A stretch of DNA of 64,000 bases. It comes from Clostridia bacterium (GTDB lineage: Bacteria; Bacillota; Clostridia; Christensenellales; CAG-917). Position numbers and translations under genes: made by a program. Below the pieces are notes generated by a model, which searched no databases, was not told where the DNA came from, and saw only the letters and a program-made list of their open reading frames with translations. Below, piece after piece: positions 31,217 through 36,374 of this stretch. The stretch covers positions 24,235 to 88,234 of the forward strand of contig JAKSOR010000001.1 in the NCBI GenBank assembly GCA_024405515.1, read 5' to 3'. Within the stretch, counting starts at the first letter, position 1; every line of letters starts with the position of its first letter.

Positions 31217-31245
31217 TTGACATAGTAAAGATAAATAAATAAAAT
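31217..31245 (+). promoter_or_regulatory. Promoter of the TM1266-like/ABC operon
   Basis: TTGACA (31217-31222), 17-nt spacer, TAAAAT (31240-31245). Confidence 0.55.
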
Positions 31246-31405
31246 ATAAGTATCTAAAACAATGATATGCCGGGTCCCGGCGGAGTGGAGGTTTTACCGA
31301 AACGATGACAGGGTGAGGCGGAAAGAATCGGCGTGTAAGAGGTAAGGTAAAGTGTTTTTTATATCCTATCGTCTTTCACGGTAGGATTTTTTTATAGGAG
31401 GAATT
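31246..31405 (+). promoter_or_regulatory. Unclassified cis-regulatory leader (riboswitch- or attenuator-like)
   Basis: The leader is approx. 150 nt and ends in the terminator ATCCTATCG (31363-31371) / CGGTAGGAT (31379-31387) plus a T7 run, 8 nt before the SD. Segment 31302-31312 is complementary to the terminator 5' arm. Confidence 0.5.
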
Positions 31406-31654
31406 ATGAAAAAAATCGGTGTAGTAGGAATAGTCATTCAGGGAGACAGGGAAATTTCCGTGGAGATTCAGAAAACCCTTACTCAGTTCGGTGATATTAT
31501 TGTCGGCCGTATGGGTGTACCTAGAAACGGGGTTAACGCCATAGCACTGATTGTTGAGGGAAGCGTGGAGAGGATATCTGCGCTTACCGGTAAACTCGGC
31601 AAATACCAGAATGTTTCAGTGAAATCTGCACTGACAGCAGCAGAGGTGGAATAG
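31406..31654 (+). CDS. Small ACT/NikR-C-like protein, TM1266 family ('putative iron-only hydrogenase system regulator' family)
   Basis: 82 aa; GRMGVP and ALTGKLG motifs as I recall them for the TM1266 family. Confidence 0.55.
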   Translation: MKKIGVVGIVIQGDREISVEIQKTLTQFGDIIVGRMGVPRNGVNAIALIVEGSVERISALTGKLGKYQNVSVKSALTAAEVE

Positions 31655-31655
31655 A

Positions 31656-32645
31656 ATGAAAAAAACAGGTCTGTTATGTGTTATTCTGATCCTTTTTATC
31701 CTGACGGTATTTTTTACAGGATGCAGTAATCAGGGTACAGCCGGGAATATAAGATTCGCAGCTCCTGAAGGAACGCCTGCTCTTGCGATGCTGAATTTTG
31801 CAGTATCGGGTGAAAAAATCGGTGGGATGGATGTGGATTATTCTGTTGTTTCGCCTTCAAATATTGCGGCAGAGATGTCTTCCGGGAAAGCGGATGTGGT
31901 TATTATGCCTGTTAATGCCGGAGCAAATCTTATAAGACAGGGTGCGGATTATAAACTTGTAAGCATTGCCGTTGACGGGTCACTGTACCTTACAGGATTC
32001 GGCGGGAAAGAAAGCGGTCTCGGTATTGATGACATAAAGGGCAGTAAAATAGTATGTATAGGACAGACAGGTGTTCCTGGTCTTGTGTTCAGATATGTTA
32101 TGTCCAAAAATGGGATTGAATTAATAACCTCCGGAAAACCGGAAGGGAATCAGGTTCTTGTTGAATATGTGGCTGACGGGGCTGCAGCAAAAGTGAGACT
32201 TGCCGGGAAACAGGCAGATTTTGCGGTCGTCGGCGAACCTGCGGCAACAGTATTCCGTAACGCGCTTGCATGTGACAGTGAGATGGATATGCAGAAAATG
32301 TATTCCGAAGCTGATCCTCATAACGGAGATTCATATCCTCAGGCCGGGCTGTTTGTGAAAAGTGGACTCTGCACGGACAAAGCTTTTATGGATGATTTAT
32401 TCGGCAAACTCGAAAAGAATAAAGAATTTATTGCTTCAAATCCTTCTGATGTGGACAGCATGGCCAAATCTCTCTATGAATCAGCGTCGTTCCCTGCACC
32501 TTCTGTAAGCAGGTGCGCAGTTAACGGAAACAGACTGACAGATAAATCAAAAGAGGAAATAATTATGTTCTTAAAGAACGTAATGAAAAAAGATGCATCC
32601 GGAAACGAAATAAACTGGGATGCAGCAACAACAATATTATTCTGA
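31656..32645 (+). CDS. ABC transporter substrate-binding lipoprotein, NMT1/THI5 (SsuA/ThiY)-like
   Basis: Lipobox FFTGC; 329 aa; operon position ahead of a TauC/SsuC-type permease. Confidence 0.65.
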   Translation: MKKTGLLCVILILFILTVFFTGCSNQGTAGNIRFAAPEGTPALAMLNFAVSGEKIGGMDVDYSVVSPSNIAAEMSSGKADVVIMPVNAGANLIRQGADYKLVSIAVDGSLYLTGFGGKESGLGIDDIKGSKIVCIGQTGVPGLVFRYVMSKNGIELITSGKPEGNQVLVEYVADGAAAKVRLAGKQADFAVVGEPAATVFRNALACDSEMDMQKMYSEADPHNGDSYPQAGLFVKSGLCTDKAFMDDLFGKLEKNKEFIASNPSDVDSMAKSLYESASFPAPSVSRCAVNGNRLTDKSKEEIIMFLKNVMKKDASGNEINWDAATTILF

Positions 32646-32646
32646 T

Positions 32647-33420
32647 ATGGAAAACTTAAAGAAAACAAAATTTAAATCAGCAGCTCTTAATGTGCTGTAT
32701 CCGCTCATAGCTGCAGGCATAATTGTTGCAGTGTGGGCAATTGCAGCGGCAGCCGAGGGAAATCAGTTGGTTCTTCCGTCTCCGGGAGGCGTGATTAAAA
32801 AGTTTTTTACTCTTGGAGGGGAGGCAGGTTTCTGGCTCAGCGTTCTGGCGTCACTTTTAAGGACACTTATATGTTTCATCACTTCATTTGTCCTGGCACT
32901 TCTGTTTGCCTCACTTGGAGGTATATGTAATCCTGTGCACAGAGTGCTTTCACCAATCGTGACATTTTTCCGGGCTGCACCTACTGTTGCGGTGATTCTT
33001 ATTATGTATGCGTTTCTTAACAGCAGTATAATGGCAGTCGTTGTGGGATTCTTAATAGCGTTCCCTGTTATGTATGCAGCATTTTACAGCGCAGTGACCG
33101 GGGTTGATAAAGACCTTATCGAAATGGCGGATGTATATAAGGTAAGTCCTCTGAACAAAGTGAAAAGTATATATCTGCCATCAATTGCATCCTGCCTTTT
33201 TGACACATCCAAGGCAACACTGTCTCTGACTTTCAAAGTAATTATAGCCTCTGAGATACTGACTAATGTAACCACAAGCATAGGCGGAAAAATTCAGGTT
33301 GCATATGCATCATTTGAAATAAGTTATCTTCTTGCCTGGACACTGATTGCTATCGTTTTCAGTTTTGTTCTTGAAGGCATTGTTATGCTTCTTAAAAAAG
33401 TATGGGAGGTAAGAAAATGA
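32647..33420 (+). CDS. ABC transporter permease (SsuC/TauC-type)
   Basis: Start chosen at ATG 32647, just after the upstream stop. About six TM segments. Confidence 0.75.
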   Translation: MENLKKTKFKSAALNVLYPLIAAGIIVAVWAIAAAAEGNQLVLPSPGGVIKKFFTLGGEAGFWLSVLASLLRTLICFITSFVLALLFASLGGICNPVHRVLSPIVTFFRAAPTVAVILIMYAFLNSSIMAVVVGFLIAFPVMYAAFYSAVTGVDKDLIEMADVYKVSPLNKVKSIYLPSIASCLFDTSKATLSLTFKVIIASEILTNVTTSIGGKIQVAYASFEISYLLAWTLIAIVFSFVLEGIVMLLKKVWEVRK

Positions 33421-34130
33421 GTGATATTAAGATTTCAGGATTTAATCTTTCATATGGAGAAAAGATAATTTTCAAAGACTTTGATATTGCCTTTGAGGAG
33501 AATAAAATCAATGTTATTCTTGGCGGAAGCGGAGTAGGCAAGAGCTCCCTTCTGAATGCAGTTGCCGGGATCAAAGAATACTCCGGGACTGTTTCCGGAA
33601 CAGATGGCGGTGTAAGTTATATTTTTCAGAAAGACAGGTTAATACCTACAATATCGGTATATAAAAATCTTGATTTGATACTTAAAGGCATATACAGTGA
33701 CAGTAATGAGAGGAGAAAAAACATAGAGGAAATGCTGCAGCTTCTTGAAATAAGCGATATAAAGGATTCACTTCCTTCGGCAATTTCAGGTGGTCAGGCG
33801 CAGCGCGTGGCTATTGCAAGGGCATTCCTTTTCCCATCCTCCGTTCTGCTTCTGGACGAACCTTTTAAGGCACTTGATACCCAGCTTAAAGCAAAACTTC
33901 TGAAAGCATTCCTGAATATAAACGAACAGATGCCAAGGACTGTGATTTATGTAACCCATGCTGTAGATGAGTGTCTTCTCTCGGCGGATAAATATTTCGT
34001 TCTTGGAGGAAGACCCGTACAGATTTTTGCAGAGGGTGAGATAAACGTTCCTAAAAAAGACAGGAATCTTTACTCGGATGAACTCAGTGACACGAGAAAT
34101 GTGCTTTTAAGGGAACTTTTCCGTGATTAA
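33417..34130 (+). CDS. ABC transporter ATP-binding protein (SsuB/TauB-type)
   Basis: ATG 33417 behind GGGAGG overlaps the permease stop (ATGA). Walker A GGSGVGKSS, signature ISGGQAQR, Walker B LLLDEPF. Confidence 0.88.
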   Translation: MSDIKISGFNLSYGEKIIFKDFDIAFEENKINVILGGSGVGKSSLLNAVAGIKEYSGTVSGTDGGVSYIFQKDRLIPTISVYKNLDLILKGIYSDSNERRKNIEEMLQLLEISDIKDSLPSAISGGQAQRVAIARAFLFPSSVLLLDEPFKALDTQLKAKLLKAFLNINEQMPRTVIYVTHAVDECLLSADKYFVLGGRPVQIFAEGEINVPKKDRNLYSDELSDTRNVLLRELFRD

Positions 34131-34509: not shown

Positions 34510-34526
34510 CACCCTAGGTGAAATTA

Positions 34527-36374
34527 ATGAGCGAAAAGAAGAAAGCGGAAAACAAAGCAGTAAAGCGCACCAATATCGGTGGTCAGGCTGTTCTTGAAGG
34601 TGTCATGATGAAGGGCACCCGTTGTTATGCTACTGCCGTTCGCTCTGCAACAGGTGATATCACAATCGAAAGTCACTATACAAAAAGTGCAAAAGAGAGA
34701 AATATCATCCTCCGTCTGCCATTCATAAGAGGGGTTGTTAACCTTCTGACTCAGCTTTTTCAGGGCACCGGCATAATAATGAGATCCGCAGAAGTCTACG
34801 GGGATTATGCAGAACCTTCAAAATTCGAGAAATGGATGTCAGACAAATTCAAAATAAATCCGATGAATCTTCTTATGGCATTCTCTGTTGTTCTGGGCGT
34901 TGCTCTAGCAGTCGGAATGTTTATTTTCCTGCCGAATTTTCTCACTGGTCTTATCTGTGATAATATAGCAGCTATCAGGGATTCATCACTTTACAGTTTA
35001 TGGTACAGTCTCATTGAGGGCGGCATAATGCTCACGATATTCATATCGTACATAGCCCTGGTATCTCTCATGAAGGACATAAAGAGAGTATTCATGTACC
35101 ATGGCGCTGAGCATAAGGTAATAAGCTGTTATGAGCACGGTCTTGAACTTACGGTTGAAAATGCAAAAAAAATGAAGAGAGAGCATTCAAGATGCGGAAC
35201 GACCTTCCTTTTCTTTGTAATTTCCGTGAGTATCATTGTGTTCGTGCTTATCAATTTCATGCTCGAAAGATGCGGCCTGCTTGTATCGGACAGCGTCACT
35301 GCATATAAAGTACTCAACATACTCATAAGGCTAGGATTCAAACTTTTATTCCTGCCTGTTGTAGCCGGAGTATCCTATGAACTTTTAAAGCTTCTTGCCA
35401 AAAGCGATGCACTTCCTGTAAGAATAATCCGTGCACCGGGTATGCTGCTTCAGAAACTGACAACAAAAGAACCGACGGATGACATGCTTGAGGTCTCAAT
35501 AACAGCATTCAAGACAGTTCTTGAAATGGATGAGAAAGACATTCCGGAAAAAACATTTGACATCAATGTCCCGTATGCTATTGAGAGAAAGAAAATCGAG
35601 GATATGCTGAAGGGTACTGACGAAGCAGATATAGACTGGCTTTTTGTGGATGTAACAAAAACAAAACGCAGTGAACTTGCTCAGCTCAAAGTTGTCACAA
35701 AAGCACAGGCGGACACTCTTGAAGCTGCTGCCAAAAAGATGGCAGAAGGAATGCCTTATCAGTATGCACTCGGAAGAACCGAGTTCTATGGAAGAACAAT
35801 AAATCTCAATCAGAACGTTCTGATTCCTCGCCAGGATACTGAAGAAGTTGTCTATAAAGCAATCGAACTTATTAAGGCAAATGACTACAAGTCCTGTCTT
35901 GATCTCTGTACAGGGAGCGGTGCAATTGCTGTAACAATCAAAAAAGAAACGAAGATTGATGTAACTGCAACAGATATCTTTGAAGGAGCAACAGAAATAG
36001 CAAAAGCTAATATGCTTGTGAATCTTGCCCCTTGTGTTGTAAAACAGGGCGATATGTTTGAAGCTCTTGAGGAAAACGAAAAATTTGATATTATCGTTTC
36101 AAATCCGCCATATATACCTTCAGCGGATATCGAGACACTGGAAAAGAAAGTTAAGGATTTCGAACCTAGACTTGCCCTTGACGGGGACAAAGATGGTCTG
36201 AAATTCTACAGAATAATTCATAACGGATATAAGAATCACCTCAATGAAAACGGGGCTCTTGTTATGGAATTCGGTATCGGTCAGGCTGAAGCCATAAAGG
36301 AAATTTTCAGCGATGCAGATGTCGAAATAATAAAAGACATGAACAATATTGAAAGGATAGCAGTAGTAAAATGA
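34527..36374 (+). CDS. prmC: Fusion protein: DUF1385 membrane domain plus release-factor glutamine N5-methyltransferase PrmC/HemK
   Basis: Start at ATG 34527. The N-terminal approx. 335 aa carry DUF1385 hallmarks ([30 protein letters not shown]). The C-terminal approx. 280 aa are a complete PrmC ([35 protein letters not shown]). Confidence 0.85.

Follow-up and report, generated by a model that had tools for sequence, protein, structure and literature searches.

The leader of an ABC importer operon in the window, by which we mean the whole 64-kb stretch of Christensenellales DNA that was analysed, is a real, conserved, structured RNA, and we read it as a new orphan riboswitch class controlling transcription termination, with a probability of roughly 0.5. 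The motif, its conservation, its base-pairing and its competing helices are matters of observation, and the direction of the switch and the nature of the effector, a metabolite rather than a protein, are inferred. Direct sensing is likewise an inference and the ligand is unidentified. Most likely the importer operon is switched off by termination when the leader binds this unidentified ligand, or possibly when it binds the product of the first gene, a small protein.

In the window, the leader lies behind a sigma-70-type promoter on the forward strand (31217-31245), with the -35 element TTGACA at 31217-31222, a 17-nt spacer and the -10 element TAAAAT at 31240-31245; in a consensus scan, the promoter matches at 11 of 12 positions. 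Transcription is inferred to start at about 31251-31253, so that the motif begins only a few nucleotides from the 5' end of the RNA, and the same order of promoter then motif is present at orthologous loci. The leader is about 154 nt long and ends in an intrinsic terminator (31363-31393), consisting of a 10-pair stem (31363-31372/31378-31387, loop CUUUC, computed at -12.1 kcal/mol) and a run of seven Ts (31387-31393). Sequence reading and the ORF call place a Shine-Dalgarno AGGAGG at 31396-31401 and the ATG start codon at 31406-31408. A GC-containing stem with a U tract between promoter and start codon meets the definition of an intrinsic-terminator attenuator. The strand GAAACGAUGACAGGGUG (31299-31315), which overlaps the conserved core of unit B described below, can act as the 5' strand of an antiterminator by pairing with AUAUCCUAUCGUCUUUC (31362-31377) in a duplex of -14.7 kcal/mol, as against -12.1 kcal/mol for the terminator hairpin. 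An alternative pairing that overlaps the sensor, as is expected of a riboswitch expression platform, is therefore present, on computed thermodynamics only. An earlier note on this DNA had proposed such a promoter, a leader of approximately 150 nt, a terminator ahead of the AGGAGG of the first gene and a mutually exclusive antiterminator; each is borne out by these measurements, and the terminator/antiterminator logic that it described has its equivalent family-wide. A purine-rich stretch that it pointed out, GGAGUGGAGG, is also present (31282-31291). Taken alone (160 nt), the leader folds barely better than its shuffles (z = -1.3); as this stability is unremarkable, the functional case must rest on cross-genome comparison.

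A profile search with the SBP of the operon returned 78 genome loci, mostly Christensenellales MAGs, 68 of which have a TM1266-like gene immediately upstream of the SBP gene. The motif precedes the orthologous operon (TM1266-like gene, NMT1-like SBP, permease and ATPase) in 60 of these 68 Christensenellales/Clostridia loci, 29 times as a single unit and 31 times in tandem. Two covariance models were used: R1 for the single-unit form, and R2 for the tandem form, built from the leaders of 26 other species with the window left out. R1 scores the 29 single-unit loci at 34-68 bits, R2 scores the 31 tandem loci at 52-83 bits, and the only significant match of R2 in the 64 kb of the window is the leader itself (31250-31347, 65.7 bits, E = 7e-14). 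Among the eight loci without a model match, five end too near the gene, one (L064) is broken by Ns with its first unit still visible, and two (L012 and L032) are truly motif-less, retaining the TM1266-like gene and the SBP operon with no motif found in more than 2.5 kb upstream. Since these two keep the gene without the motif, the protein has a role independent of the motif RNA. A metagenome scan with the pattern AAACGATG-N(2-32)-CGGAGTGTAAGA returned 51 contigs, about 35 of which hold family members, all 5' of the same operon. The other 16 are without the operon and give chance-like R1 scores (13-22 bits), with one unresolved exception at 33 bits. This exception (L095, sediment metagenome contig Ga0315291_10220338, 1856-1902, + strand) lies on a contig that ends 17 nt later and its P2 would be only G-GGA-C; it could be a chance match or a distant instance. 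Neither in the 68 genome loci nor in the metagenome pattern scan was the motif found before any other gene type. The association with one type of importer operon suggests feedback linked to the cargo, but a one-operon regulon cannot separate such feedback from autoregulation by the first gene. The earlier note would have counted a leader without conservation or covariation in orthologous operons as refuted; both were found, in the single-unit and tandem alignments and with RNAalifold.

The single unit is a rod-like hairpin that, in an alignment of 31 sequences, comprises P1, a 4x4 internal loop (YNAA/GUAA), two Watson-Crick pairs, the series G.A, A.G and U.G, and P2. The consensus module has the 5' strand UC-YNAA-WC-GAU-G and the 3' strand C-GGA-GW-GUAA-GA. 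P1 ends in a C-G and a U-A pair with a variable extension, the G.A, A.G and U.G are formed by CGAUG opposite CGGAG and are followed by invariant G-C and A-U pairs, and P2 is short and variable (e.g., GAC-UUCG-GUC or GACC-GAA-GGUC). Paired cells make up 89.5% of this alignment, compared to 77.9% in shuffles. Columns 16 and 38 pair as AU in 17 and UA in 14 of the 31 single-unit sequences and are never unpaired, and one of the two Watson-Crick pairs covaries, as A-U, U-A or G-C, across the family; the first variable pair of P2 occurs as CG (12), GU (5), GC (3) and AU (2). RNAalifold, run blind, predicted the same core. A conserved sensor with covariation-supported helices, as a riboswitch should have, is therefore in place (the key pair, P2 and the x:x' helix described below). 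The A-U/U-A swap mostly splits two sequence types, AAACGAUG...GGAGUG (type 1) and AAUCGAUG...GGAGAG (type 2), and because the covariation of the key pair mostly separates a few clades or the two types, it represents few independent events. The invariant U.G and G-U pairs, together with the strand specificity, indicate an RNA rather than a DNA element; a DNA operator is unlikely for a strand-specific sequence with G-U/U.G pairs downstream of the promoter. Judged from sequence only and with no 3D evidence, the setting of G.A, A.G and U.G by CGAUG/CGGAG between two Watson-Crick pairs resembles tandem sheared G.A modules, and in the type-2 variant AGUA faces GAA, an arrangement shared with bulged-G (sarcin-ricin/loop E) modules, whereas type 1 has UGUA opposite NAA.

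In the tandem form, two such modules are nested on one hairpin. The sensor domain of the window (31250-31347, + strand) reads, from the outside in, as an outer P1, an outer module that joins the 5' strand of unit A to the 3' strand of unit B (31253-31264 and 31329-31340), a central helix x:x', an inner module that joins the 5' strand of unit B to the 3' strand of unit A (31297-31307 and 31281-31291) and is rotated by 180 degrees, and a small capped inner P1. By alignment, the outer internal loop takes its 5' half from the 5' strand of unit A (UC-UAAA-AC-AAU-G) and its 3' half from the 3' strand of unit B (C-GGC-GU-GUAA-GA, with GGC in place of the consensus GGA), which also provides the 3' side of P1. 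The 5' strand of unit B (C-CGAA-AC-GAU-G), which is also contained in the antiterminator strand, and the 3' strand of unit A (C-GGA-GU-GGAG-G) form the two halves of the inner loop. The inner P1 (GG/CC) is closed by the cap loop UUUUA (31292-31296), for which relatives have equivalents such as GGG-UGCG-CCC. In duplex computations, strand x, AUAUGCCGGGUCCCGG (31265-31280), and strand x', ACAGGGUGAGGCGGAAAGAAU (31308-31328), pair at -11.0 kcal/mol. Strand x can alternatively fold into a local hairpin, GCCGG-GUC-CCGGC, at -7.0 kcal/mol, and both pairings are possible. This GC hairpin (31269-31281) had been noted as an independent element; its sequence is present and it can form, but comparison with relatives suggests that the segment is one side, x, of a long-range helix whose other side is 31308-31328. 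The two modules of the window are related by a pseudo-two-fold axis on a single long hairpin, a repeated and nested anatomy that is absent from the earlier description.

The nested pairing is supported by the cross-unit pair between the 5' strand of unit B and the 3' strand of unit A (alignment columns 44-62), which under the nested model is UA in 19, CG in 8 and unpaired in none of 27 tandem leaders. Eight of the 27 aligned leaders, from seven lineages, have C in the 3' strand of unit A and G in the 5' strand of unit B, and six of these eight keep A in the 5' strand of unit A and U in the 3' strand of unit B. A side-by-side arrangement, with each unit folding on itself, was rejected, as it leaves an A.C mismatch between the two strands of unit A in 7 of the 27 leaders versus none under the nested model. 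The x:x' helix is present in 31 of 31 distinct tandem leaders analysed, with sequences that differ among them (for instance GUCGGC/GCCGAC, GUCCC/GGGAC, GCCUC/GAGGC, GCGGGC/GCCUGC, GUUUGC/GCAGAC and GUCGAAGCC/GGCUU-U-UGAC). With nested pairing and x:x' in every tandem, the overall shape is one long hairpin. Two homologous modules with one expression platform are thus found in the 31 tandem loci and the window, which meets the definition of a tandem, although cooperativity has not been shown. In glycine and other tandem-aptamer riboswitches, single and tandem versions coexist and two modules lie before one platform, suggesting a cooperative or sharpened response. The motif is alike in that single and double sensors coexist and two similar modules lie 5' of one platform, but here the modules are nested on one hairpin and strand-swapped (A 5' with B 3') instead of side by side. 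To our knowledge, a nested, strand-swapped double module is unusual among tandem riboswitches.

Intrinsic terminators occur in nearly all orthologous leaders (-8 to -23 kcal/mol), and at almost all loci conserved nucleotides of the core or of P1 can pair with the terminator's 5' arm (-10 to -27 kcal/mol). The core segment used by the platform differs between lineages: type-1 single units use the tail UGUAAGACGGC as partner of the terminator arm, type-2 single units use the core UUCGGAGA, and tandems use CAAAACGAUG or ACGGAGUGUAAGA. An antiterminator formed from the 3' tail GUAAGAGGUAAGG, which is common in single-unit relatives, was rejected for the window, where it reaches only -7.7 kcal/mol against -14.7. 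A terminator arm that is systematically complementary to the core speaks for conditional switching and against a static element, and since this match is seen at nearly all loci, an OFF switch is predicted. In every case, a stabilised sensor would withhold the antiterminator strand, so the inferred logic is that the presence of the effector leads to termination and to an importer that is off. In the window, an effector held in the modules would keep the core nucleotides locked in the hairpin, allowing the terminator at 31363-31393 to form and turning the operon off. Without the effector, the unit B core (31299-31315) would pair with the 5' arm of the terminator, RNA polymerase would read through and the importer would be made. 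As effector, a small molecule is the most likely candidate; it would be the cargo of the NitT/TauT-type importer or a product of that cargo. A small molecule is favored because single and tandem forms coexist in related species, because platforms vary and L012 and L032 retain the gene after loss of the motif, and because the TM1266-like protein is a bare ACT/NikR-C-like domain whose structural neighbours are ligand-binding or oligomerisation domains. A conserved sensor attached to freely re-invented platforms is the typical picture of a riboswitch.

At ten loci (L005, L007, L008, L009, L012, L013, L019, L059, L062 and L063) a second leader segment of 250-300 nt lies between the terminator of the motif and the start of the TM1266-like gene. 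It consists of an AT-rich AATTAATAATTAA...TTGCGGAA, possibly a second promoter, and three small hairpins in tandem, with AAUAUCACU or AAUAUAAC after each, the last repeat being replaced by the Shine-Dalgarno sequence (AAUAUGAGG). L012 has retained only this second segment.

Comparison with known RNA families was done with Rfam 15 (4227 models, including NMT1, TPP, HMP-PP/thiS, ykkC/guanidine, ZTP, glycine and T-box). At gathering score, the leader has no match in a search of the 64-kb window, where the sole match is an L10_leader elsewhere (RF00557, 15135-15265, + strand, 65 bits), an ordinary ribosomal-protein leader. At E < 10, the single match over the leader itself is to L10_leader; it is driven by the terminator and, at 22.8 bits, falls short of the 44-bit threshold. 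Nothing was found on the motif at gathering score in 20 orthologous loci, and in short regions of two of the orthologues (L058 and L003), searched at E < 10, the only matches were noise from sRNAs of terminator type, located 3' of the motif. Two relatives have a known riboswitch no more than a few kb from the operon, FMN in one (L066, 5994-6118, - strand) and TPP in the other (L017, 360-448, + strand); neither is related to the motif. An Rfam hit to a known family would have refuted the suggestion of an unclassified leader; none fell on the motif in the window or the 20 orthologous loci, and known riboswitch classes are ruled out to this extent. In searches of the literature on TM1266, on Christensenellales or hydG riboswitches and on riboswitch candidates, the motif was not described. 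The motif is undescribed in the sources available here and is a new orphan cis-regulatory RNA of high quality. What was originally called a candidate riboswitch leader is then conserved, structured and without an Rfam family; that it senses a metabolite directly is still a candidate claim only, and a protein effector is not excluded.

The functionally closest described system is the NMT1 motif, a xanthine/urate riboswitch (Yu & Breaker 2020, PMC7373994); membership of the leader in this class was tested and not met. Both are small two-stem rods with conserved nucleotides in a junction or internal loop, and both are genetic OFF switches (inferred, in our case) associated with NMT1/THI5-like and tauA-like ABC SBP genes (PMC7373994). 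However, the motif of the window has no covariance-model match to NMT1 and its conserved sequence differs, it occurs in Christensenellales (Bacillota) and not Proteobacteria, it uses an intrinsic-terminator platform and has a nested tandem form, and its regulon is a single importer operon without purine-oxidation genes. It is conceivable that the leader is a highly divergent member of a described riboswitch class, such as NMT1/xanthine or a thiamin-precursor class, that was missed by the Rfam models. In favor of this are the small two-stem, rod-like OFF-switch design of the NMT1 motif with its NMT1/THI5-like and tauA-like ABC genes (PMC7373994) and the NMT1/THI5-like SBP found here. We consider it very improbable, given that nothing in Rfam matched the motif at E < 10 (window and the two short orthologous regions) or at gathering score (20 loci), and that the NMT1 motif was reported only in Proteobacteria and mainly in translational control (PMC7373994).

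The operon itself encodes the TM1266-like protein (31406-31654, 82 aa; PF21699 73 bits, TIGR03959 77 bits), an NMT1/THI5-like lipoprotein SBP (31656-32645), a NitT/TauT-type permease (32620-33420) and an ABC ATPase (33402-34130), all on the forward strand. No Pfam domain is above threshold in the SBP of the window, and its relatives carry NMT1_2/NMT1 domains. PDB sequence and fold searches with the SBP (model pLDDT 90.9) matched only the broad NMT1/THI5-like class, comprising 3hn0 (ligand unknown), a thiamin SBP, ThiY, MqnD-like enzymes, TauA, SsuA and PqqT, and the likeness to binders of thiamin, FAMP, taurine, sulfonate and PQQ amounts to only 12-16% identity. Among the invariant residues of the SBP family, Tyr, Trp, Phe, Glu, Asp, Asn and Gln are abundant, and Arg and Lys are scarce. 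By inference, this composition weakly favors a heterocycle, neutral or cationic, over an oxyanion as the ligand. The neighbours (a MacB/FtsX-like permease and a 592-aa unknown upstream, rpmE-prmC-prfA downstream) give no clue to a pathway and are syntenic housekeeping genes. The TM1266-like protein is a stand-alone domain of ACT/NikR-C-terminal-like fold, mildly basic and without His or Cys. Its AF2 model (pLDDT 92.7) matches in Foldseek best to 2nzc (TM 0.88), then to NikR C-terminal domains and ACT domains; a PDB sequence search returned 2nzc only. No nucleic-acid-binding protein is among the top structural neighbours in Foldseek, and an RNA-binding fold, demonstrated or by homology, could not be assigned, which does not exclude a new RNA-binding use. 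A role as a cytosolic ligand-binding or trans-inhibition module of the importer is plausible, by inference. In one relative (L027, 2584-2933), a tandem repeat takes in the Shine-Dalgarno sequence and the 5' portion of the TM1266-like gene; it is an assembly artefact or a recent duplication.

Several observations count against the riboswitch reading and lend weight to others. No ligand is known or can be inferred, with the SBP offering no more than 12-16% identity; in our samples the motif serves only one operon type, always starting with a gene annotated as a putative regulator; and the motif is small, without a multi-helix junction or pseudoknot. Internal-loop modules with tandem G.A pairs are classic protein-binding sites. 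It is accordingly possible, though less probable than direct ligand sensing, that the TM1266-like ACT-domain protein binds the motif, a ligand-loaded oligomer docking on the one or two internal-loop modules, stabilising the hairpin and causing termination and autoregulation. All true instances of the motif immediately precede a TM1266-like gene, NCBIfam and Pfam label the family a putative regulator, and the protein is better conserved among orthologues (66-87% identity) than the SBP (about 50-60%). The tandem, with its pseudo-two-fold symmetry, would fit a symmetric oligomer, and the NikR C-terminal-like fold is a tetramerisation domain; the tandem G.A with the GUAA/NAA internal loop resembles protein-binding RNA modules. 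The strongest argument is a recurring pairing of leader and TM1266: TM1266-hydG operons of Thermotogota and Cloacimonadota-like bacteria also have a conserved but different structured leader just 5' of TM1266, which suggests a protein-RNA partnership and makes 'leader + TM1266' look like a portable module. Against this stand a fold with no known RNA-binding relative among the matches, the only mildly basic character of the protein and its lack of His and Cys, the two loci that have the gene without the motif, the coexistence of single and tandem forms where an oligomer of constant size should call for a constant number of sites, and the absence of any alignable core shared by the hydG-type leader and the motif (no match with R1 or R2). 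Known attenuators offer a partial precedent. In those of PyrR, TRAP and HutP, repeated RNA elements match an oligomeric protein activated by a small ligand, and pyrR can be the first gene. The leader shares with them a mutually exclusive terminator and antiterminator and, as with pyrR, a putative regulator gene in first place, but it has no sequence similarity to their sites and its candidate ACT/NikR-C-like protein is without RNA-binding precedent. The wider proposal that TM1266-family ACT-like proteins, annotated as 'putative iron-only hydrogenase system regulators', are new ligand-activated RNA-binding attenuators, each clade with its own leader and with RNA docking on a symmetric oligomer, is possible but less likely than not; under it, the nested hairpin may go with the ABC-importer operons of Christensenellales and a ACCUGNGAUGAG...CAUCAAGGG hairpin with the TM1266-hydG-hydE operons of Thermotogota and Cloacimonadota-like bacteria.

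Two further readings leave both metabolite and TM1266 aside. The leader could be a structured 5' UTR with another role or effector, for example a site for a different trans-acting protein or an sRNA, an element of RNA stability or processing, or a sensor of a metal ion or physical signal. Structure and conservation with an unidentified effector are compatible with this, and pseudo-symmetric, cooperative designs occur in ion sensors too. It nevertheless seems improbable in view of the complementarity of the terminator 5' arm to the core and the association with a single importer operon. Ribosome-mediated attenuation through a leader peptide was also entertained on account of the conserved AUG inside CRAUGA: this AUG is invariant in the core, the window holds a 27-codon ORF (31262-31345), and some single-unit frames end at the conserved UAA. 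But the AUG has no preceding Shine-Dalgarno sequence, P2 loop lengths of 2-14 nt, not multiples of three, mean that neither frame nor peptide is conserved, and conservation tracks base-pairing, not codons. We rejected this reading as barely credible, and with no Shine-Dalgarno sequence and no conserved frame the ORF in the window is probably incidental.

The hydG-linked leaders deserve description in their own right. The canonical TM1266-hydG(-hydE) leader hairpin is ACCU-GM-GAUG-AG-RGA..UCY-GG-CAUC-AA-GGGU, with sites at L130 3990-4072, L136 ~2400-2500, L132 3895-3940 and L134/L135 2795-2840, and also in L138, L139 and L141, 40-110 nt 5' of the TM1266 start. At several loci the next element, just 5' of the Shine-Dalgarno sequence, is CCCCCUCAUC(GC), which is complementary to GCGAUGAGGG; in Thermotoga and Pseudothermotoga an intrinsic terminator comes next instead. 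This hairpin had no Rfam match at E < 0.1, and R1 and R2 did not find the nested or single motif upstream of hydG-linked TM1266 genes. Possibly it represents another regulatory RNA not yet described, linked either with the TM1266 family or with the maturation of hydrogenase.

If the leader of the window is a riboswitch, as we prefer, it is a well-supported orphan class with an unusual, strand-swapped and pseudo-symmetric double sensor, and the identity of its ligand would name the cargo of a conserved and wholly uncharacterised Christensenellales ABC importer. What is known of Christensenellales comes chiefly from metagenomes of the gut and rumen. Should the effector be the TM1266-like protein, a 'putative hydrogenase regulator' family would gain a mechanism, attenuation at the RNA level, and the result would bear on the control of the [FeFe]-hydrogenase maturase genes hydG and hydE. 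On either reading, the single unit, at 52 nt, is of a size that suits direct biochemistry and structural work.

Downstream of the importer genes, the window contains rpmE, a fusion of DUF1385 with prmC, and prfA. The fusion is a 618-aa ORF (34518-36374, + strand) in which DUF1385 (residues 67-336) is joined to a full PrmC release-factor methyltransferase (residues 371-615); it lies directly upstream of prfA, and this arrangement is kept in about 40 related loci.
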